Assembly: GCA_964435515.1 (NCBI GenBank)
Contig: CAYSZD010000004.1
Coordinates: forward strand, 11,955 to 75,954
From: an uncultured Gammaproteobacteria bacterium
GTDB taxonomy: Bacteria > Patescibacteriota > Patescibacteriia > Patescibacteriales > UBA12465
DNA length: 64,000 nucleotides
Reading direction: 5' to 3'
Every line of letters begins with the position of its first letter. Within the stretch, counting starts at the first letter, position 1. Below the pieces are notes generated by a model. That model was not told where the DNA came from, did no database searches, and saw only the letters and a program-made list of their open reading frames with translations. The position numbers were made by a program, and so were the translations under genes. Shown piece after piece: positions 5,181-27,211 of this stretch.

Positions 5181-5365
5181 GATACATAGATTTTAAGGTT
5201 CAACTTATTGCTCCTATAATGCCAAAAATATTCAAATTTGTCAATTAATTATTTCTCCTTTTTTAAGCTTAGAAGCTTGGCTTTTTATCATTATTATGAT
5301 AGGATGAGTGAGTAAAATTTTGATTGATGAAAACGGGGCCTTGGCCCTCATTTTTGATTATATAC

Positions 5366-5953
5366 ATGAACGCAAATATATTAAAAAAATTTAAGGACAA
5401 GCAATTATTGCAACAGTTAAAGCATAAAGATAAAGAAGCGTTTATTAAAGTCTATGATGAATACGCTGAAGATTTATACCGCTTTATCTATTTTAAGGTT
5501 GGTAAAGAAACAGAGGCACAAGATCTAACTTCTTTAGTATTTCTAAAAGCTTGGCATCATATTCAAGCTAATTCTTTAAGTGATAGTAAGACGCTCAGAG
5601 CTTTAGTATATAAAATAGCTCGTCATGCTGTTATTGATTATTATCGAGAGGGAAGTAATAAATTAGAATTGTCTTTAGATGATGAAAATAATCCGATTGA
5701 GATAATTGATGATGATCAAAATTTAGCTGATAAGCTTGATAAGGCTAGTGATTTAGCTTTGCTTAAAAAACAACTACCGCTATTAAAAGAAGAATACAGA
5801 GAAGTTATTATTCTGCGATTTGTGAATGACTTAAGTTTAGAAGAAATAGCTGATGTTACCTCTAAGAGTCGTGGTAATGTGAGAGTTATTCTGCACCGAG
5901 CCTTAGCCGCTTTAAAGGAAATGGTTGAAAAAGAAATGGAGAAGAAGAAATAA
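5366..5953 (+). CDS. ECF-type RNA polymerase sigma-70 family factor (sigma A of this window)
   Basis: Region 2 (DLYRFIYFKVG..AQDLTSLVFLKAW) and region 4 HTH (LSLEEIADVTSKSRGNVRVILHRALAALKE). ATG at 5366. A sigma70-like promoter, TTTAAG-N17-TATAAT, lies at ~5191-5219. Confidence 0.85.
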   Translation: MNANILKKFKDKQLLQQLKHKDKEAFIKVYDEYAEDLYRFIYFKVGKETEAQDLTSLVFLKAWHHIQANSLSDSKTLRALVYKIARHAVIDYYREGSNKLELSLDDENNPIEIIDDDQNLADKLDKASDLALLKKQLPLLKEEYREVIILRFVNDLSLEEIADVTSKSRGNVRVILHRALAALKEMVEKEMEKKK

Positions 5954-5967
5954 TAATTATTATTAGT

Positions 5968-6516
5968 TTATTTGAATAAAAAAGATTCTAAATCTTTTTT
6001 GGTTAATAACATGCTGTAGTTAGCATGTTTTTTTAAAGCAAAACTAACTTGATGCTTAAAGCTAATATACTCTACATTTTTACCTAAATGTTTTATTTTT
6101 AAAATAGCTGGTATGAGATCAGTGTCAGAGGATATAATAATTGCAGTATTGTAGAGATTTTCATAAGCCCCTACTAATAAGTCTACAGCAATTTTTACAT
6201 CTACTCCTTTTTCATGAAAGACGCCCTTATTATTCATAAGGTATCCTTTTTTAATAATTATACTCTGTCTTTCTAAAGCATTGAGTAAGTTTAATTGTTT
6301 TTCTCTTTTTGCTTGATTGATAAGGTCTGTGTTCTTTGTTTTTATAATACCAACATAATAACGACGAGAAATGCTTTGACGACCTGCGCACAGATAATCA
6401 CAAAGCTTTGCATAATTAAATTTAGTTGTATTTCTAATTTTTAAGTCCTTCAGCTTATGATATAAATTGCTACCATCAATATAAACGCAGACTCGTATAT
6501 TTAATAGTCTGTTCAT
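5968..6516 (-). CDS. NYN-domain (LabA/DUF88, PIN-like) putative ribonuclease
   Basis: VCVYIDGSNLYH, GVDVKIAVDLL and IIISSDTDLIPAI are the conserved acidic motifs of the NYN fold. Confidence 0.8.
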   Translation of the reverse strand: MNRLLNIRVCVYIDGSNLYHKLKDLKIRNTTKFNYAKLCDYLCAGRQSISRRYYVGIIKTKNTDLINQAKREKQLNLLNALERQSIIIKKGYLMNNKGVFHEKGVDVKIAVDLLVGAYENLYNTAIIISSDTDLIPAILKIKHLGKNVEYISFKHQVSFALKKHANYSMLLTKKDLESFLFK

Positions 6517-6520
6517 ATAT

Positions 6521-6613
6521 AAAAAAAGCCCACCGTGATCTCTTTCGAGACCAGAGTGGGTGGGGTAAGTAAAAATAATATAGAATCTATAGTAATCTTA
6601 TATTTCTTCTGAT
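6521..6613 (-). ncRNA. candidate ~95-nt leader/sRNA ending in a strong intrinsic terminator that abuts the NYN start codon
   Basis: Minus-strand promoter: TTGACA (6642-6647), 16 nt, TAAAAT (6620-6625). Hairpin CCCACTCTGGTCTC-GAAA-GAGATCACGGTGGG (6529-6560) followed by U7 (6521-6527). No ATG in the transcript. Confidence 0.45.
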
Positions 6614-6758
6614 GATCTAATTTTAACATAAGTAGATTTATTGTCAACGACATATTTTATTTATAATCATCATCTATCTTATTCGGCCACTTTTCAGTAT
6701 AGCAATATGACGATAGCAGATTAATAACATTTCTTAATCAACCTATTATCAAGGTATT

Positions 6759-6787
6759 AAAAAAAGCCCATCGATGAAGATGAGCTT
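6759..6787 (-). terminator. rho-independent terminator of the 6809-7126 gene
   Basis: Minus strand: AAGCTCATC / GATGGGCTT 9-bp stem followed by a U-run (plus-strand A-run 6759-6765). Confidence 0.7.
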
Positions 6788-6808
6788 TTGAATTAAAGAT
6801 ACTAAGTA

Positions 6809-7126
6809 TTAGATAGCGTCTTTAACTAATGGCGGGTACCCTAGAATAGAGATGCCCAATTCTTTTCTTTCTTTATCGCTCTTTATTTTTCGAACGACAT
6901 CTTTTGGTCTGATTGGTTTACCACCAAAGACCTCTGTCGCTACCAGGTAACGCTGACGCTTGTGGTCAACGGATTCCAAGGTTGTCGATACCTTGTCGGT
7001 AGCAATGACCTTGAGTAAGCCATTGGGCAGTTCGTTGGTATAGTCTACCAATCTACCCGTGTGCGAGTTGCCCCAGAGGTATCCAATAAGACCTCCGAAA
7101 AAGAAAGCAAAAATAATTAATGCCAT
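6809..7126 (-). CDS. N-terminally membrane-anchored small protein, unknown function
   Basis: MALIIFAFFFGGLIGYLWG is a TM anchor followed by an 85-aa soluble part. A TTGACA-N17-TTTAAT promoter lies on the minus strand (7255-7260 / 7232-7237). Confidence 0.55.
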   Translation of the reverse strand: MALIIFAFFFGGLIGYLWGNSHTGRLVDYTNELPNGLLKVIATDKVSTTLESVDHKRQRYLVATEVFGGKPIRPKDVVRKIKSDKERKELGISILGYPPLVKDAI

Positions 7127-7409: not shown

Positions 7410-7437
7410 TGTAACGTTTTAGTCATTTATCCGTATG
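7410..7437 (+). promoter_or_regulatory. ECF-type promoter TGTAAC-N16-CGTATG
   Basis: TGTAAC 7410-7415, a 16-nt spacer, CGTATG 7432-7437. The ATG of the downstream gene is at 7447. This matches the TGnAAC-N16/17-CGT architecture of Bacillus sigma X/W/M-type ECF promoters. Confidence 0.5.
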
Positions 7438-7446
7438 CTATAGTGT

Positions 7447-8286
7447 ATGACAAATAAAGACTTTCTCTCACAACTTAATACTTTGAAAGAAATTCGTCCT
7501 CAATCAGCCTGGTTAAAAAGTAACCGGGAGATTTTGTTATCTCAAATTTCTAACTCAGGGGCAGAACAACTTTCATATTGGCAGAAGATTATTATTGATT
7601 TAAAAAGTTTTAGCATGGTTGTTTCTAAACCGGTAGTAGTGATGGCCTCTTTATTTGCCTTCCTATTAGGCACCTCTGCTTTTGCTCATTTAGCTTTTAA
7701 CAGTACTCGTCCTAATGACTCTTTATATATTGCTAAAATTATTTCTGAGAAAGCAAAGCTTAGCACTGTTTTTAACGCTCAAGAAAGAGAGAAATTAGAA
7801 GCTCAGTTTGCTGTTGGTCATGCTGAAGGTATTAGTTCTGTTTTAGCTGAGGCTAAAATTGATGATAGCAATGAAGATCAATTAGCTAGTTTAAATAATG
7901 ATTTCAATAAAGAGATAAATATTGTTAGAGAGAAGATTGCTGTGATATCTAAGAATGTTAAGAAAGATGAGCCTGTTGCAAATATTGATATTAATATAGA
8001 GGCTTCCAGTTCTCTTGATACTTTGGTTAGCGTGGCTGATAACGGTAAAGATGAACAGGGAACTCAGATTAGTATTAATAACACAGAGAAAGATATTGAC
8101 ATAGATGTTGTTAAGGCTAGTAGCACTGAAGATGTTGAAGCCGAACCAGAAATTGATACAGCTAATAAGGTGGAGGAGCTAAAAAATCCTGAACTTATAT
8201 TAGAGGAAGCTCAGATATTATTTGAATCTAAAAATTATCAAGGAGCACTTGATAAGATTAAGGAGGTAAAAGAGTTAATTAAGTAA
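7447..8286 (+). CDS. single-pass membrane protein with acidic extracytoplasmic domain (possible anti-sigma/sensor partner)
   Basis: A 60-aa cytoplasmic N-terminus, a TM helix (VVVMASLFAFLLGTSAFAHLAF) and an acidic low-complexity C-terminal part. It is preceded by the ECF-type promoter. Confidence 0.6.
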   Translation: MTNKDFLSQLNTLKEIRPQSAWLKSNREILLSQISNSGAEQLSYWQKIIIDLKSFSMVVSKPVVVMASLFAFLLGTSAFAHLAFNSTRPNDSLYIAKIISEKAKLSTVFNAQEREKLEAQFAVGHAEGISSVLAEAKIDDSNEDQLASLNNDFNKEINIVREKIAVISKNVKKDEPVANIDINIEASSSLDTLVSVADNGKDEQGTQISINNTEKDIDIDVVKASSTEDVEAEPEIDTANKVEELKNPELILEEAQILFESKNYQGALDKIKEVKELIK

Positions 8287-8338
8287 TGTTTTTCGTCCTT
8301 TTACCATTGTTCTTTTAGTTATTTTTAAAAATAACTTT

Positions 8339-8810
8339 CGCCGGTGTTTATTAGTTTATCTTTGACAGCGATACCTTTTCAGAAGATCAGATTACTGCTT
8401 TCTTCCGATCTGGATTGTACTCATAAGATAAATTAATAAATCCTGGCGACTACGGATTAGTGGAGCAATCTACTCTTTCCGCTTAGCTCGGGTTAGCGAG
8501 CCTAAATAAAGGTCGTGCCTTGTAACAAAGGTTGGCCTCGCTCATTATAAATTACATATTTTCCCCCTGGTTTTCTTTGTTTCATCTTTATTTTGATTTT
8601 TTCTATTTAGAAAAGAAGTTGTCGTAATAAGCTAATAAGAAATCCCGTAGATTGATTAAGCTTTTCTCCAGCCTCGGCTAAACAGCCTTTCAGGCTGGCA
8701 TTACTTAATTGTCTTACCGGTCTTTAAAGCTTGTTTCCGCTGACGCGTTGGTGAGGCGGGATTCCGATCAATTTATAAATTTTCTTAAAGGCATAGAACG
8801 ACTCCGGAAA
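8339..8810 (+). ncRNA. candidate large structured 5' leader or ncRNA (unclassified)
   Basis: ORF-free region. A 22-nt helix, 8339-8360/8427-8448, pairs 21/22 positions, and its 3 G-U pairs are valid only on the + strand. Further hairpins lie at 8668-8698 and 8736-8760, with long-range pairing 8462-8473/8647-8669. Confidence 0.45.
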
Positions 8811-8946
8811 AGAAGAATAGATTTTGATAAATATAAGAAAAAGATAAAGAATTAACTAAGGGATAAGGAAGATAAAACTTATATCATTTAGATATTGTTC
8901 TCGCTAATATTGTGCGGACAAGTCTGAGTGATTTCAATTATTACTT

Positions 8947-11900
8947 ATGAAAAAATTACGCAAATTTCTAGTTGTCAGCGTAATGGTATTATCAATTATC
9001 GCTATGAGTGGTTTAACCTTTAATCCGGTTAATGCTGCTGCTCAAGCTGGTGATTTGATTAAAATGGATGGTTTATCATCTGTTTATTACCTTGGCAACG
9101 ATGGCAAGAGATACGTTTTCCCTAGTGAATCCGTATATTTCTCTTGGTACAATGATTTCAGCGGCGTGGTAACCATTCCTGCTTCTGAATTACAATCATA
9201 CCCATTAGGCGCAAACGTAACCATGAGACCTGGTACTAAGCTTGTAAAGATCACTACTGATCCTAAAGTTTATGCAATTGGTCAAAATGGTACTTTACAC
9301 TGGGTACAATCCGAAGCTGATGCTATCGCTTTATATGGCGCTAACTGGGCTTCAAAAGTTGTAGACGTAGCTGATGCTTTCTTTACTAATTATACTATTG
9401 GTACAGCTTTAACTTCTGGTACATATCCTGCAGGCACTCTTTTAAAGAATGCTAATAATGCAAGTATCTACTACTTTGATGGTACAAACTACCGCATGAT
9501 TTCAAGCGAATCAGCTTTCATGGCTAACCGCTTCAATTATGACAACGTAGTTACTACAACCATGACTTTAACTGCTTCTGGTAATGCTATTAATGGTATG
9601 GAGGATTTCTCTAAACCATCCGGCGCTACTAGTGGTTCAGTTGTTACAAATTCTGGTTTAAGCGTAGCTTTAAGCTCAATGACTCCAGCTTCCATGAATA
9701 TTCCTGGAAATTCTTCAGTTGAATTCTTAAAGATTAACTTAACCGCTGCTAATGATGGTCCAGTTAATGTTTCTAGCATTAAATTAACCGCTTATGGTTT
9801 AAGTGATGCTCAAAACATTGATGATGTAACTTTTTATGATGGTGGAATGAAGATTGGCACTTCTAAGAATATTAGTTCTGACAGAGTTGCTACTTTCAAT
9901 TTTGCTACTCCTATTTACATCGGTGCTGGTTCTACTAAAACTTTAACAGTGAAGGCTACTGTTGCTTCAACATCTGGTAGTTATGGATTAGGTATTGCTG
10001 CTGCTACAGACGTTATGTCTAGTGCTGCTACAGTAACCGGTTCTATGCCTATTGTTGGTAACTTAATGTCAGCTGTTAGTGCTTCATTAGGCACTCTTAC
10101 AATTGTTGATGTAGATCAAAGTAAAACTGTTAGCTTCGGTGAAGATAACGTTTTATTAGCAGATTTCACCTTAGAAACTTCTAATGATGAAGATGCTTTA
10201 TTGCAATCTATTAGTCTTTACAATGGTGGTACCAACGCTAATGACGTAGTATCTAACCTAAAAATGATTATTGATGGCGTTGAAGTAGCTACCGGTTCTT
10301 ATACAGATCGTTATGCTTATTTCAATTTAAATGGTTATCAAATTGAAAAAGGTAAGAATGTTTCTGTTGAGGTTCGTGGCGACATGGGCGTAACTAGTAG
10401 TGGTGACACTATTAAATTATACCTTAAGGATAATTTAGATTTAGTTGCTCTTGGTAAGACTCATGGATTCAACATGGGTATTACTAACAACTTTAATAGT
10501 GTTCTTACTAGCGTTGTATTATCTACTGGTGATTTTACTATTGATATGGATAAATCTGCTACTCCTGCTAAAGATGTGAAACCTGACACAGATGGAGTTG
10601 TACTTGCAACTTTATCTCTAAAATCAAATGGTGAAAATGCAACTATTACTGATATTGCTGGTTCTGGTTTCTATGTAACAACCGGTACTGGTACAAGTAC
10701 TATATTATTAGAAAACGTTAAGATGGTTGATAAATCTAACGGCGGTATTTATGATTTAGCTATTGCTACTTCTTCAACTGCCACTCGTCAAGAATTAACA
10801 TTATCTGACGAAATCGCTTTAGTTAAAGGAGTTGCTAAGACTTTTGAAATTAAAGCTGATATCTTAAGCATCGTTCCAGAAAATACTACCTTACAGGTAG
10901 AATTAAATGGTAGTGCTATGGCTATTGAAGGTGATGTTTCTGGTGCTGATATCAATGATATTACTCCAAGCAGCGTTGCTGGTTCTATTATTACCGTTAA
11001 AGACGCTTCTTTAACTTTAATTCCTGTAACTTTGACTAATGTTAGCGTTGTTGGTGGCCAAAAAGACGTAGTTGTTTATCAAGGTAGATTAAAAGCTGGT
11101 AATGCTGATGCAGTTAAGCTTTTATCTGTTAAATTAACAGCTGCTTCAAGTTCCGCTGCTTATGCTTTCACTAATAGCAATATTAGCAAGTTAAGTTTAT
11201 GGTTGAACGGTCATGAGCTAAAGGCTGTATCTAACCAAATCAATGAAACTTCTAAGACTATTACTTTCAGCTCTTTAGACACAGCTTACTATACAGTAGC
11301 TGCTGGCACTGAAGTTGATTTAATGGTTAAGGCTGATTTTGCTTCTAGCGTTACAACTGGTGACTTCAAGTTAAGTGTTGATAATAATGCTGACATGACT
11401 GCTCGTTCATTTGTTGGCAATAACACTGTTACTCCTTCAACTGCAAGCACTGATTCTAGAATTGTTACTACTGTAGATAAAGGTACTCTAACAGTTGCTT
11501 TAGTAACTACTGATGCTAAAGCTAATAGAGATTCAATGTTATTAGCTGGTTCTCAAACTGAAGCTGATCGTTATCTTGGTGAAATTAAATTCACTACTGC
11601 TAATGAAGCTATTAAAGTTAGCACCTTAGCTTTAACTAAGAAAGCTGGTGCTACCGCAACTAATGCTGACTTGAAAGAAGTTAAATTAGTTAAGGCTGAT
11701 GGCACAGTTGTTGCTACTAAGACTGTTAATGCTGATGGTTCAGTAACTTTTGATCCATTCGATGTAGTATTTGACGCTGATCAAGCTACTTCATTATTCA
11801 TTGTTGCTGTAGCTAAAGGTTTAAATGTTAATGGTGATCCAACTGCAACTGCAACTTCCGGCCGTACTATTCAGTATTCTTTAGGCACGGTAACTGCTAT

Positions 11901-12474
11901 TGGTAATGCATCTGGTTCTACTATTACACCTACTGCTCCTGTAACAGATTCTAAGACTGCTACTATTGTTGGTTCAAAGCTTAACTCTATTGTTAATGCT
12001 ATGAATGACGGTCAATTGACCGGTGGTACCGCTAAGACTATTGGTAAATACACTTTTGTATTTGACAATGGTAACAACAGAAATACATCTGATAATACTG
12101 AATTAAAAGCTGTGTTAACTGACTTAGTAATTAACATTTCTAAGAGCGCAACTACTTCTATAGCTAATGTTAAGGTTCAGATTGAAGGCACTTCTGATAA
12201 GAGCGCTGCCGCTACAGTAACAGGAACAGCTACTGCACCTATCGCAACATTTGCATCCGCTGATTTAGACGATCTAACAGATGGTGCTAAATTAGACGGT
12301 ACTGTTACTTTAGTTGTTTCAGCTGACATTACTACTACTTCTGAGGATGGTGAATACTTACAGACTTCTATGGCCGACACTTCACTTGCTCTTGATTACA
12401 CAAGTAATGGTATAGCTCATACTACTATGCAACTTCCAATGTCTGAGGTTGTAGGTGGTACATTAAGCGAATAG
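8947..12474 (+). CDS. giant secreted S-layer-like surface protein with ~6 tandem beta-sandwich modules
   Basis: Signal peptide MKKLRKFLVVSVMVLSIIAMSGLTFNPVNAAAQA, followed by an N-terminal LIKMDGLSSVYYLGNDGKRYVFP domain. Repeated ~110-130-aa modules share the pattern (V.L..F.L.A....V.V.S..L.........V.L..DG..V....F......I..G.S..L.VKAD). The protein is A/T/S/V/G-rich with strongly biased GCT/GGT/ACT/GTT codons. Confidence 0.85.
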   Translation: MKKLRKFLVVSVMVLSIIAMSGLTFNPVNAAAQAGDLIKMDGLSSVYYLGNDGKRYVFPSESVYFSWYNDFSGVVTIPASELQSYPLGANVTMRPGTKLVKITTDPKVYAIGQNGTLHWVQSEADAIALYGANWASKVVDVADAFFTNYTIGTALTSGTYPAGTLLKNANNASIYYFDGTNYRMISSESAFMANRFNYDNVVTTTMTLTASGNAINGMEDFSKPSGATSGSVVTNSGLSVALSSMTPASMNIPGNSSVEFLKINLTAANDGPVNVSSIKLTAYGLSDAQNIDDVTFYDGGMKIGTSKNISSDRVATFNFATPIYIGAGSTKTLTVKATVASTSGSYGLGIAAATDVMSSAATVTGSMPIVGNLMSAVSASLGTLTIVDVDQSKTVSFGEDNVLLADFTLETSNDEDALLQSISLYNGGTNANDVVSNLKMIIDGVEVATGSYTDRYAYFNLNGYQIEKGKNVSVEVRGDMGVTSSGDTIKLYLKDNLDLVALGKTHGFNMGITNNFNSVLTSVVLSTGDFTIDMDKSATPAKDVKPDTDGVVLATLSLKSNGENATITDIAGSGFYVTTGTGTSTILLENVKMVDKSNGGIYDLAIATSSTATRQELTLSDEIALVKGVAKTFEIKADILSIVPENTTLQVELNGSAMAIEGDVSGADINDITPSSVAGSIITVKDASLTLIPVTLTNVSVVGGQKDVVVYQGRLKAGNADAVKLLSVKLTAASSSAAYAFTNSNISKLSLWLNGHELKAVSNQINETSKTITFSSLDTAYYTVAAGTEVDLMVKADFASSVTTGDFKLSVDNNADMTARSFVGNNTVTPSTASTDSRIVTTVDKGTLTVALVTTDAKANRDSMLLAGSQTEADRYLGEIKFTTANEAIKVSTLALTKKAGATATNADLKEVKLVKADGTVVATKTVNADGSVTFDPFDVVFDADQATSLFIVAVAKGLNVNGDPTATATSGRTIQYSLGTVTAIGNASGSTITPTAPVTDSKTATIVGSKLNSIVNAMNDGQLTGGTAKTIGKYTFVFDNGNNRNTSDNTELKAVLTDLVINISKSATTSIANVKVQIEGTSDKSAAATVTGTATAPIATFASADLDDLTDGAKLDGTVTLVVSADITTTSEDGEYLQTSMADTSLALDYTSNGIAHTTMQLPMSEVVGGTLSE

Positions 12475-12527: not shown

Positions 12528-12570
12528 AGAAAAGAGCGGCCATTTGGTCGCTCTTTTCTGTTTGTTTTAA
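12528..12570 (+). terminator. strong rho-independent terminator
   Basis: AGAAAAGAGCGGCC-ATTT-GGTCGCTCTTTTCT 14-bp stem followed by a T-rich tail. Confidence 0.85.
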
Positions 12571-12722: not shown

Positions 12723-13310
12723 ATGTTAAGTGATGTGTCTAATATTGAAGAGCAGAGTGATTCTGACCTAGTGTTGGCTAGCTTAGCTAATCCTGAGTCT
12801 TTTTCGGCTATTATAAAACGCTATGAGAGACCCTTATTTCTGTACATCTCTCGTATCACTAATGTTTCTCATGATGAATGTGACGATATATTACAAGAGG
12901 TATTTATTAACTGTTATCTAAACCTTAACGATTATAATAGTGATTTAAAATTCTCTTCCTGGCTCTATCGTATTGCTCATAATCAAGCCATTAGTCACTA
13001 TCGCAAGCTTAAAGCTAGACCAGAGGGTCATATGCTAAGCATTGATGAAAGTGAAGCTTTAGACTTAGTATCTAGTCTTGATATAGGACTAAATATTGAT
13101 ATTTCTTTAAATCAGGAAAGTATTACTCGTGTATTATCAGCTTTGGATAAAAAACATCGAGAAATATTAGTGTTAAAATTTTTAGAAGAGAAAAGCTATC
13201 AGGAGATATCAGATATTATTAAAAAACCACTGGGAACAGTTGCTTCAAGTGTTAATCGGGCTAAATCGGCTTTTAAAGAAGAGTTTAATAGGCAAGCTAT
13301 TAAATTATAA
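12723..13310 (+). CDS. ECF-type RNA polymerase sigma-70 family factor (sigma B of this window)
   Basis: Region 2 (DILQEVFINCYLNLNDY..FSSWLYRIAHNQAISHYRK) and region 4 (KSYQEISDIIKKPLGTVASSVNRAKSAFKEE). Confidence 0.85.
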   Translation: MLSDVSNIEEQSDSDLVLASLANPESFSAIIKRYERPLFLYISRITNVSHDECDDILQEVFINCYLNLNDYNSDLKFSSWLYRIAHNQAISHYRKLKARPEGHMLSIDESEALDLVSSLDIGLNIDISLNQESITRVLSALDKKHREILVLKFLEEKSYQEISDIIKKPLGTVASSVNRAKSAFKEEFNRQAIKL

Positions 13311-13320
13311 TTTTTTATAT

Positions 13321-14106
13321 ATGGAAGATAATAATTTAGTTGATAAAATAATAACTAAAATCAAGCATGAGGGCTTAGAGCCTAAACCTCGTTGGCATTT
13401 TTTATTGAAAGATTATGTGGTGTGGATTAGTGGCGCTTTAGCTTTGATTTTTGGTGCTTTAGGGGTATCAGTTATCATCTATTTGTTAAAATATAATAAT
13501 TGGTCAATGGGCAGCTTGGGGGATAAGAGTTTTTTAAGCTTTATGATTATGACCATGCCCTATTTTTGGCTCCTGTTTTTAGCTATTTTTATCTTTGTTT
13601 TATATTATAATATTAAACATCTCAAGAAAGCCTATTTATATCCAGTGAAAGTTATTATCCTTTTAGCTTTTTTGAGCAGTATTCTTTTAGGCGAACTTTT
13701 CTATCTCTTTGGCTTTGGTGAGGAAATTGATGAACTGTTAGGGGCTAAAGCTCCTTTATATGGTGAAATGTTTAACCCACAACTTAATTTCTGGTTTCAG
13801 CCAGAGGCTGGTCGTTTAGCTGGAATGGCTATTATAACAGATGATGGCTTAGAACTTATTGATCCTAGTGGTAAAATATGGCAAATAGTTTTAGCTAAAG
13901 AATTAAAAGTTTTGCCTGAAATTGTCTCTTATGAGCCTTTAAATATTCTTGGATCCATTGAGTCGGAACAGGTATTTAAAGCTCAAATAATCAAAGCTGT
14001 GCGTCCTGGCAGAGCCTTTATGAAGCGACCAGGAAGAGCAGGGTGCCCTCCAGGAGTTCCTTGTGAGCTTAAAGCTCCTATGCCGGAACGTTTAAGAAAT
14101 AAATAG
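13321..14106 (+). CDS. multi-pass membrane protein immediately downstream of sigma B (candidate anti-sigma/partner)
   Basis: ATG at 13321, 10 nt after the sigma stop. It has a short cytoplasmic N-terminus, ~4 TM helices, and a C-terminal soluble domain ending in a P/R/G-rich tail. The track start at 13240 overlaps the sigma gene and is rejected. Confidence 0.65.
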   Translation: MEDNNLVDKIITKIKHEGLEPKPRWHFLLKDYVVWISGALALIFGALGVSVIIYLLKYNNWSMGSLGDKSFLSFMIMTMPYFWLLFLAIFIFVLYYNIKHLKKAYLYPVKVIILLAFLSSILLGELFYLFGFGEEIDELLGAKAPLYGEMFNPQLNFWFQPEAGRLAGMAIITDDGLELIDPSGKIWQIVLAKELKVLPEIVSYEPLNILGSIESEQVFKAQIIKAVRPGRAFMKRPGRAGCPPGVPCELKAPMPERLRNK

Positions 14107-21988: not shown

Positions 21989-22018
21989 TATTTTCTAGTA
22001 AAGTAGTTATTAGTATAA

Positions 22019-22043
22019 ACGCCCTTATCTAAGGGCGTTTTTG
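22019..22043 (+). terminator. rho-independent terminator
   Basis: ACGCCCTTA / TAAGGGCGT stem followed by TTTTT. Confidence 0.75.
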
Positions 22044-22137
22044 TTTATTATGGATTATTGTAATTTCATTATTAATTTCAAATCTCTTCACTGGCTATTT
22101 GTTAGAATATTTTCAGCTAGCTAAACAGGCCCAGTAT

Positions 22138-22178
22138 ACTTCTGTCTTTCGCTTACGCGCCAAGGGAAAGACAGAAGT
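22138..22178 (+). promoter_or_regulatory. perfect 13-bp stem-loop in the leader of the 22194 operon
   Basis: ACTTCTGTCTTTC (22138-22150) / GAAAGACAGAAGT (22166-22178) with a GC-rich 15-nt loop, GCTTACGCGCCAAGG. There is no T-run. It ends 15 nt before the ATG. Confidence 0.5.
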
Positions 22179-22193
22179 AGGGGCACGACGCAT

Positions 22194-26550: not shown

Positions 26551-26602
26551 AAAACCCGCTCTTTAGAGAAGAAACGGGTTGTGATGATAGGAGTGTCTAG
26601 TA

Positions 26603-26749
26603 TTAACGGACCGCTCCATATATTTTATTTTCTGCCAGGATTGTGATGGCAGGAAATTTTGGTGGGACACATTCCCACAGAGTTAACTCCACAATTTCAT
26701 TGTGGACGTTTTTCACTGTTACTCTGCCCCTTTTAATGTCTCGGAGCAT
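26603..26749 (-). CDS. candidate 48-aa ORF in the structured spacer (weak)
   Basis: ATG (revcomp 26747-26749) to TAA (26603-26605). Translation: MLRDIKRGRVTVKNVHNEIVELTLWECVPPKFPAITILAENKIYGAVR. There is no SD, and the region is equally consistent with a structured RNA. Confidence 0.2.
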   Translation of the reverse strand: MLRDIKRGRVTVKNVHNEIVELTLWECVPPKFPAITILAENKIYGAVR

Positions 26750-26804
26750 ACTTTTGTGTATTTGTCAATGTTTTGCCTTTCTTTTGTTATTTCAATAAAT
26801 ATAG

Positions 26805-26833
26805 TTGATTTTTTCCGTATTTCTTAGTATTAT
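26805..26833 (+). promoter_or_regulatory. rnpB promoter TTGATT-N17-TATTAT
   Basis: -35 at 26805-26810 and -10 at 26828-26833, ~14 nt before the RNase P RNA 5' end. Confidence 0.55.
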
Positions 26834-26846
26834 TAGAGTGTTGATT

Positions 26847-27183
26847 GGGGCAAGTAAGCGGCCGCTTTTTTCGCATTAGCGAAAGAAGAGGAAAGTCCGG
26901 ACTTCATAAAAAAGACAGCGGATAATGTCCGCCAAGAGTAATCTTAGGGAAAGTGCCACAGAGACAATACTATCCGATTTATCGGAGAAAGGTGAAAAGT
27001 TGCTTGGTGTCTTTATCGGCTACAAGCAACAACTGCTGGTAACAGCATGTTTGGGGTAAACCCTGTCTGAAGCAAGAACAAAGCCTTAGCAATAAGGTAA
27101 AAAGTAGTTCGCTTGACTTAATTGGTGACAATTAAGCTAGATAAATGGCCGCTCACGACAGAATCCGGCTTATCGCTTGCCCT
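26847..27183 (+). ncRNA. rnpB: RNase P RNA, bacterial type A
   Basis: Universal motifs GAGGAAAGTCCGG (26889-26901 region) and ACAGAATCCGGCTTA (27158-27172 region). P1 pairing is GGGCAAG 26848-26854 / CTTGCCC 27176-27182. Length is ~337 nt. Confidence 0.9.
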
Positions 27184-27211
27184 CTATCAATACTAATTTA
27201 TTATTTTATAT

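Follow-up and report, generated by a model that had tools for sequence, protein, structure and literature searches.

Long structured 5' leaders are known from the surface-protein mRNAs of Lactobacillus slpA and Thermus slpA, and S-layer (surface layer) mRNAs of other bacteria carry long structured leaders that prolong their half-life. Polycistronic mRNAs have elements between their genes that govern processing or stability, among them RNase III hairpins and stabilising stem-loops; such intercistronic elements are usually single hairpins with little sequence conservation. Among the large structured RNAs, OLE shows synteny with oapA. Bacterial RNAs that are large, structured and highly conserved fall, to our knowledge, into fewer than a dozen described classes, almost none of them from the Candidate Phyla Radiation (CPR), the biology of which has been inferred largely from protein genes. 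Here we describe such an RNA from a 64,000-nt stretch of contig CAYSZD010000004.1 (assembly GCA_964435515.1; the whole stretch is referred to as the window). The + strand of positions 8338-8932, located between a DUF5667-like membrane protein gene and a gene for a giant surface protein, is a member of a structured RNA family with strong conservation, far beyond chance, and is about 600 nt long here. The family spans hundreds of uncultured Falkowbacteria-like Patescibacteria. We rate it as a new family of leader-type RNAs of unusual size and conservation, confined to a CPR lineage, and we take it, with a probability of roughly 0.6, to be a cis-acting intercistronic leader of the surface-protein gene.

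Like the S-layer mRNA leaders, the RNA lies in cis, on the same strand and directly upstream of a large secreted surface-protein gene, and has stable hairpins near the start site. Unlike them, it is 3-6 times longer, its primary sequence is conserved across hundreds of species, it contains multi-way junctions and mutually exclusive helices, and it is located between two genes of an extracytoplasmic function (ECF) sigma cluster rather than behind a strong promoter of its own; the S-layer nature of the protein here is plausible only. With the intercistronic elements it shares the position between two co-oriented genes without a terminator, the products of which are expected to differ in expression, and a near-perfect duplex of 23-27 bp (helix P1) that is long enough for RNase III, but it has three further conserved domains. 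It resembles riboswitch and T-box leaders in having a conserved structured core and mutually exclusive helices that share one strand. However, it is far larger than single aptamers, it matches no riboswitch or T-box model of Rfam, and neither a terminator nor a platform sequestering a Shine-Dalgarno (SD) sequence was found. The covarying core by which a riboswitch would be recognised in a leader is strongly supported (helices P2a/P2/P2b and the P3 junction), and nothing in it marks ligand binding. OLE, ROOL and GOLLD are similar in size (about 450-650 nt), in their many conserved helices and invariant junction nucleotides, and in their restricted phylogenetic range (Rfam; PMC12286853), and the fixed synteny with a membrane-protein gene recalls OLE-oapA. 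In contrast to OLE, the neighbours here are ECF sigma and DUF5667 genes rather than oapA, and no OLE match was obtained with Rfam; in contrast to all three, the RNA abuts a specific downstream open reading frame (ORF) with no terminator between and was found only in Patescibacteria. By this comparison the RNA would work most like surface-protein mRNA leaders and intercistronic processing or stability elements, with the size and conservation of the 'ornate' RNAs OLE, ROOL and GOLLD.

The 1175-aa surface protein has more than 1100 homologues, many of them labelled Falkowbacteria or Patescibacteria. Through protein homology, 80 loci were collected from GTDB species representatives, and the conservation of their upstream DNA was examined by BLASTN and iterated nhmmer. 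Among related loci the non-coding DNA upstream of the surface gene is 64-69% identical across about 600-650 nt, and this identity persists where the protein is only about 41% identical (for example, locus L016). The nhmmer profile matches 121 of 153 loci from genomes and metagenomes, about 100 positions are near-invariant in the family, and short anchors (UUAGUUUAUCUC / GAGAUAAAUUAA, AAGGUCGA, UUAAGCUUUUCUCCAG, GCGGGAUUCCG and ACUACUAUUGU) stand at constant relative positions in most loci. A scan of JGI metagenomes with the DNA-only pattern AAGGTCG-N186-216-GCGGGATTCCGNNNNATNT returned 71 matches, 58 of which fit the RNA profile, the other 13 being about the number expected by chance by our own estimate. 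In 57 of the 58, a surface-protein orthologue begins 40-150 nt downstream. The contig of the remaining one ends too early to judge the downstream gene, so that in the 57 evaluable matches the RNA is never seen apart from the surface-protein gene. The RNA lies on the same strand directly upstream of that ORF in about 70 of the 80 genome loci as well as in the 57 metagenome matches, which agrees with the first-pass annotation, made from the window alone, in which the spacer had been tied to the gene at 8947. In every relative examined, the RNA is likewise just upstream of this gene and in the same orientation. There is one copy per locus and one in the 64-kb window, and no matches to the RNA were obtained from viral contigs. 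Members of the family number at least 396 in genomes, besides those in metagenomes, and the very locus of the window is also present in SRR11845624 and SRR11845625. Many GTDB representative records with a Patescibacteria-type locus are titled 'uncultured Gammaproteobacteria bacterium', and others Bacillota, Halanaerobium or Nanoarchaeia; these are probably mislabelled or contaminated records of metagenome-assembled genomes.

The structure was first predicted from 28 sequences by RNAalifold (78 pairs, 34 with compensatory changes), and a hand-curated structure was counted on a non-redundant alignment of 45 sequences (A3). It contains 74 pairs, for which 95.0% of the cells are paired, compared with 32-46% when the 3' partners are slid by 1-3 columns, and 35 pairs are changed on both sides, compared with 10-18 after sliding; none of 500 shuffles reached the observed values. 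Among the paired cells, 13.4% are G-U and 1.4% A-C, and this tenfold excess of G-U indicates that the helices exist in the + sense RNA, not on the opposite strand and not as DNA palindromes. The minimum free energy is -195.5 kcal/mol for the + strand (z = -9.0) and -149.9 kcal/mol for the - strand (z = -3.5). The earlier proposal of a + sense structured RNA, for which conservation and covariation of the helices in relatives had been named as the check, is borne out by these counts. Pseudoknots or tertiary pairs were also sought by a naive global covariation scan, in which co-changes at clade level prevailed and nothing credible emerged beyond the known helices and P2b.

No known RNA class accounts for the region. 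Rfam 15 (4227 models) at gathering thresholds identified only RNase P and two tRNAs in the whole window, all of them elsewhere, and in region 8200-9000 nothing rose above noise at E <= 10 (at most 22.5 bits); weak matches to Pistol and RsaOG were regarded as noise. There was likewise no Rfam 15 match in twelve related loci or in the element of locus L062, and none with the models of OLE, ROOL, GOLLD, HEARO and raiA, nor with those of T-box, GEMM, ydaO, 6S and tmRNA, which had been set aside on the sequence alone. Literature searches yielded no description of the RNA family or of DUF5667.

The spacer that holds the RNA (8287-8946) is 660 nt long and separates a 279-aa ORF from the 1175-aa ORF. 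Its length is unusual as had been noticed (window median 97.5 nt), and its sole equal is the spacer 26551-27211 (661 nt), which carries the RNase P RNA. Its G+C content (0.35) is above that of most spacers (0.15-0.30), and is exceeded by the RNase P spacer (0.39), a tRNA spacer (0.41) and, slightly, 21989-22193 (0.36). It holds no ORF of at least 60 aa, as stated before, but the longest is 48 aa (TTG start, 8709-8855) rather than the 27 aa given at first. No ORF position or frame is conserved among the 45 family members, one of which has no ORF of at least 25 aa. The region is therefore non-coding, which speaks against the decayed coding remnant that would have refuted an RNA. The parts of the RNA and its neighbours are listed in Table 1.

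Table 1. Positions in the window of the RNA, its structural parts and the surrounding features
Feature	Position	Strand	Remarks
ECF sigma gene	5324-5953		TIGR02937, 87.4 bits (cut-off 42.9)
ECF-type motif GTAAC-N15-CGTA	7411-7435	+	Ends 11 nt before the DUF5667 ATG (7447); presumed head of the transcription unit
DUF5667-like membrane protein gene	7447-8286	+	Presumed anti-sigma partner
P1	8338-8449	+	Long hairpin; 5' arm 8338-8362, 3' arm 8425-8449, apical region 8363-8424
P2a	8439-8445 with 8488-8494	+	Alternative helix; strands Y (AAUCCUG) and Z (UCGGGUU)
Insert between Y and Z	8446-8487	+	Clade-specific
P2	8495-8502 with 8535-8542	+	AGCGAGCC/GGCCUCGCU; conserved
Internal loop in P2	8509-8516	+	Asymmetric; family-wide motif AAGGUCGA, here AAGGUCGU
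P2b	8517-8534	+	Hairpin
Tail after P2	8543-8551	+	CAUUAUAAA; conserved
Linker 1	8552-8646	+	U/A-rich; variable in length and sequence
Domain 3	8647-8776	+	Multi-helix junction
P3	8647-8657 with 8766-8776	+	Closes the four-way junction of domain 3
P3a	8660-8663 with 8754-8757	+
P3b	8666-8701	+	Inner hairpin GGCU-AAAC-AGCC
Block UUAAGCUUUUCUCCAG	8656-8671	+	Invariant
Block GCGGGAUUCCG	8756-8766	+	Invariant
Linker 2	8777-8882	+	Purine/A-rich; variable
P4	8883-8932	+	20-bp hairpin; 3' end 14 nt before the AUG
Start region and start codon	8933-8949	+	AU-rich, unstructured (UUCAAUUAUUACUU); no SD sequence
Surface-protein gene	8947-12474	+	1175 aa
Terminator-like site	12531-12556	+	First canonical intrinsic-terminator-like site downstream of the unit

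P1 comprises 23 pairs, with 96.7% of cells paired and 11 pairs changed on both sides in the 45 sequences, while its arm sequences (UUAGUUUAUCUC / GAGAUAAAUUAA) are nearly invariant. The arms as first drawn (8339-8360 and 8427-8448) were confirmed by base-by-base reading, with 21 of the 22 positions paired, three of them as G-U, and a repeat search returned the same arms. Conserved GAAGA, UCUUC and GGA segments occur in the apical region, for which MAFFT alignments give no settled fold. For the core that follows, a covariance model (R1) of P2a, P2 and P2b obtained 44 matches in 81 sources, one per locus, and scores 48.9 bits (E = 8e-9) on window positions 8435-8554. In the R1 alignment, 20 of the 21 pairs are changed on both sides and 92% of cells pair, compared with 32-56% after sliding.

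In domain 3, P3 is paired in 99.8% of cells in the 45 sequences and holds in 58 sequences including 13 distant ones (e.g. CG49/UA7 and GC40/AU10/GU6); the mixed MAFFT alignment of close and distant members is too long and ragged here for a covariance model (528 columns), and the P3 columns alone were used. The nested hairpin with GGCT-AAAC-AGCC described in the first-pass annotation is conserved and corresponds to P3b, and the domain includes further hairpins besides P3, P3a and P3b. Two other pairings proposed there are complementary in the sequence but are not conserved in the family. For one, joining 8462-8473 to 8647-8669, the true partner of GUAGAUUGAUU (8647-8657) is the 3' strand of P3. 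For the other, a CCGC/GCGG hairpin at 8736-8760, the GCGG (8757-8760) overlaps both the 3' strand of P3a and the invariant GCGGGAUUCCG. An alternative Fold II of domain 3 (S1:S3 with S2:S4) was also considered and rejected. It suits the close relatives no less well than Fold I, but distant members show a local S1:S2 hairpin, and Fold I was therefore adopted for the family. Complementarity between S2 and S4 is present in the close relatives.

Two further observations concern this domain. The (C)AAUCUAC of the Y-Z insert (8462-8473) is complementary to the GUAGAU(UG) of the P3 5' strand (8647-8654). This pairing, the long-range one of the first-pass annotation, amounts to 5-8 bp in about five of seven members of the sub-clade of the window (L003, L004, L015, L016) and is absent elsewhere; it may compete with P3 in this lineage only, or be fortuitous. 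The invariant GGGAUUCC (8758-8765) is a self-complementary 8-mer when G-U is allowed, and so is the sole variant seen, GGGAUCCU. In the window and in loci L012, L028, L037, L040, L044, L046, L051 and L059, this self-complementarity is compatible with either a 3-bp hairpin or intermolecular (dimer) pairing.

P4 forms a single hairpin of 16-23 bp in all 45 sequences (median z = -4.4). Its upper-stem pairs vary in a compensated way (UA23/CG22 and GC17/AU15/CG6/UA3), its lower-stem sequences vary widely, and its apical loop is conserved (family consensus ACUACUAUUGU, here CUAAUAUUGU).

The switch-like feature of the RNA lies in strand Y, which is the 3' base of P1, where it pairs with strand X, and also the 5' arm of P2a, where it pairs with strand Z. 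Since Y is common to both, the two helices are mutually exclusive. Each is supported by base changes in the 45-sequence alignment, X:Y by e.g. GC38/CG7, CG34/UA7 and AU34/CG7, and Y:Z by e.g. CG18/UA16/UG11 (column pair 155-213) and AU35/GC9. The covariance-model alignment gives independent support for Y:Z, with six of the seven P2a pairs changed on both sides. In 44 of 44 members, including distant divergent ones, the long duplex formed with the upstream arm X takes in at least four of Y's seven nucleotides, and this duplex has a median z of -7 against shuffled upstream sequence. Z directly adjoins P2 and Y directly adjoins upper P1, so that the P2a state would stack upper P1, P2a and P2 end to end. 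A switch had been proposed nearby among GCUCG, AGCGAGCC and GGCCUCGCU. All these pairings are present in the sequence, and the AGCGAGCC/GGCCUCGCU one is conserved as P2, but GCUCG/CGAGC is specific to the window. By its sequence, the genuine switch-like feature is the competition between the base of P1 and P2a, which adjoins the one proposed earlier.

The order ECF sigma factor, DUF5667-type membrane protein, RNA and surface protein is found in nearly all loci. The DUF5667 match of the window protein is below threshold, while its orthologues pass the Pfam cut-off (36-55 bits against 27), and the protein is presumed to be the anti-sigma partner of the ECF sigma. The motif GTAAC-N15-CGTA, which we take to be the recognition pattern of ECF sigmas of the SigX/SigW/SigM type, is present as a single + strand copy in about 70 of the 80 loci. 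Close relatives have it just before the DUF5667 gene, distant ones about 30 nt before the sigma gene. No conserved terminator was found in the 650 nt before the AUG, where 79 loci contain seven scattered, non-conserved terminator-like sites; canonical terminators are used elsewhere in the genome, including the one just after the surface gene. The simplest reading would be one ECF-dependent transcript of DUF5667, RNA and surface gene.

A housekeeping-type promoter was also sought near the RNA, and TTGCTT-N14/15-TGnTAnnAT was found only upstream of the sigma gene in close relatives (L062, L038, L048, L055, L101 and others), about 60-110 nt before the sigma ORF. In those relatives the sigma leader has a conserved hairpin and U-run, GGCGGG...CCCGTTATTTTTTGTT, which is not in this window and is a candidate attenuator or terminator. 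Locus L082 has a second GTAAC-N15-CGTA copy directly upstream of the RNA (-401). The 11-nt gap from the motif to the DUF5667 ATG in the window would imply a near-leaderless mRNA.

The surface-protein product was modelled by AlphaFold2 with 33 sequences (mean predicted local distance difference test score, pLDDT, 83.6). A signal peptide and about eight immunoglobulin (Ig)-like beta-sandwich domains are predicted, together with a conserved N-terminal region of alpha/beta type (about residues 35-205). Searches of Pfam, NCBIfam and PDB sequences with the protein gave no match, and Foldseek against PDB returned only generic tandem Ig-like adhesin-type structures, such as PrgB, Bap and antigen I/II. 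A giant secreted surface protein is thus supported. That it is an S-layer protein is plausible, because S-layers are predicted to be widespread in Patescibacteria (10.1101/2024.05.28.596244).

As a leader of this gene, the RNA would be co-transcribed with the DUF5667 gene from the putative ECF-sigma-type promoter, and its action would be in cis and post-transcriptional. During transcription, P1 would fold completely at the outset; Y would later be released by a trigger, pair with Z and so complete the P2a-P2 core. The trigger might be an RNase III-type cut in the P1 duplex, a protein that binds the RNA, or a small ligand. Processing, stability or translation of the surface-protein message would in this way be controlled by the switch and P4, independently of the low-level anti-sigma message. 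Three more specific mechanisms were rejected. For an attenuator, there are no conserved terminators, and P1 is followed by about three U in some members and none in the window. For sequestration of an SD sequence, the genome hardly uses such sequences: SD-like motifs (GGAG, GAGG or AGGA within 20 nt before the start) precede 3 of 59 window genes, so that their absence at the surface gene is genome-wide rather than gene-specific. For melting of P1 coupled to ribosomes terminating at the DUF5667 stop, the distance from the stop to X is too variable; the stop codon lies a median of 18 nt before the RNA start (at most 12 nt in 12 of 40 loci, more than 40 nt in 11 of 40, and 50 nt in the window). 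In distant family members, AAGGA is found 8-12 nt before the surface-gene AUG.

Several points weigh against the leader. A classical expression platform was not found, there being no terminator/antiterminator pair and no SD sequence to sequester, and the start region before the AUG is unpaired. The assignment of promoter and operon draws on motifs and spacing, and a promoter could also lie within the DUF5667 ORF, in its conserved 3' end. Partial coexistence of X:Y and Y:Z, as a pseudoknot-like junction instead of a switch, is conceivable in principle. An all-against-all scan showed that clade structure inflates the simple counts of covariation; more reliable evidence comes from the slid-partner controls and from how diverse the helix sequences are among distant members. 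Finally, loops and junctions are strongly conserved (16/16 and 11/11 invariant blocks), which exceeds what a simple stabiliser needs and would also fit a trans-acting ribonucleoprotein (RNP) or a sensor.

If the RNA family is such a leader, it offers a concrete point at which the main surface protein of ultra-small episymbiotic bacteria could be controlled through RNA, linked to an ECF sigma/DUF5667 signalling module. The alignment and model are suited to Rfam-style curation, and the four-part locus (sigma, DUF5667, RNA and Ig-repeat surface protein) is usable as a lineage signature.

The other readings were each given a probability separately, without normalising the set to one. Tentatively, and with clearly less confidence than for the leader alone, the RNA may be a novel large 'ornate' RNA class specific to Falkowbacteria-like CPR and more than a leader, which would serve as a sensor or as an RNP or oligomeric scaffold in the ECF sigma/anti-sigma operon. 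The AAGGUCGA loop and GCGGGAUUCCG junction would bind a ligand, a protein or a second RNA copy, and the P1/P2a strand exchange would couple envelope signalling to the major surface protein.

It is rather unlikely that the RNA is a stand-alone or processed large non-coding RNA of the OLE, ROOL or GOLLD type, merely syntenic with the surface gene and acting in an RNP or RNA assembly, for example with the DUF5667 protein or the sigma/anti-sigma pair. Its 450-650 nt in several domains, the fixed synteny with a membrane-protein gene, and junction and loop nucleotides near-invariant across species whose proteins are 41-57% identical would all suit such an RNA. The self-complementary 8-mers GGGAUUCC and GGGAUCCU would make intermolecular pairing possible, and homo-oligomers are known for OLE, ROOL and GOLLD (PMC12286853). 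However, the RNA abuts both flanking ORFs, has neither a promoter motif of its own nor a conserved terminator before the gene, and for these reasons a leader is favoured over a free-standing RNA. Also against independence, the RNA was never found away from the surface-protein gene, the conserved block includes P4 and the start region, and 50-60 nt separate the end of domain 3 from the AUG in distant members.

A passive 5' leader, the hairpins of which would only shield an abundant surface-layer mRNA from RNases without sensing or switching, is improbable. The position upstream of a large secreted surface protein, the long stable hairpins P1 and P4 and the predicted prevalence of S-layers in Patescibacteria are what such a stabiliser would lead one to expect. 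Yet stems would suffice for it, and the invariant single-stranded blocks AAGGUCGA, UUAAGCUUUUCUCC and GCGGGAUUCCG would not be needed, nor would a family-wide pair of mutually exclusive helices; moreover, 450-650 nt is far above the size of known stabilisers.

We regard as very improbable that the conservation reflects a DNA-level regulatory region, that is, a promoter and operator sites of the surface gene. The region is directly upstream of a gene in a sigma factor cluster, and in many close relatives TGAAC/TGGAC ... (C)GTT stands just 5' of and within the 5' arm of P4, as an ECF-like TGAAC-N17/18-GTT box overlapping the hairpin. This box was rejected as the surface-gene promoter: the putative -10 box is itself paired within P4, where one position is U-G in 41 of 45 sequences, the spacing is unlike the cluster's own GTAAC-N15-CGTA, and the pattern is absent from distant members. 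The G-U excess and the compensatory changes throughout the paired columns likewise speak for RNA. A decayed coding remnant, small-protein gene, mobile element or self-cleaving ribozyme can practically be dismissed, since the 48-aa ORF has no conserved position or frame, the sub-threshold Pistol match (8486-8521, 18.7 bits against a cut-off of 34.5, E = 0.73) falls on a window-specific hairpin absent from relatives, and the RNA occurs as one copy per locus with no repeats, terminal structures or viral-contig matches.

The neighbourhood of the locus has some features of its own. In almost all related loci the sigma gene either adjoins the DUF5667 gene or stands within about 300 nt of it; in the window a minus-strand block (5968-7126) intervenes, with an NYN-domain gene (5968-6516) and a 105-aa small membrane-protein ORF (6809-7126). 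GC content is 43-50% in the ORF region of this block (33% on average in the window), and each of the genes comes with a terminator-like hairpin of its own; the block looks like a foreign insertion. About ten loci (L022, L034, L036, L041, L043, L060, L061, L065, L070 and L074) have an extra ORF of 250-280 aa between the DUF5667 gene and the RNA, without similarity to window proteins. Just downstream of the surface gene's terminator (region 12723-14106), there is a second ECF sigma gene (12723-13310, with SigW-like best matches), overlapped by a 288-aa ORF without a family match, and the two may form a second sigma/anti-sigma pair. Among the other spacers, 1455-1804 (350 nt) and 21989-22193 (205 nt) have GC contents of 0.35-0.36, near those of RNA-bearing spacers and above the typical value. 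The RNase P RNA is of class A (26846-27188, 240.8 bits) and is preceded in its spacer by about 295 nt (26551-26845).

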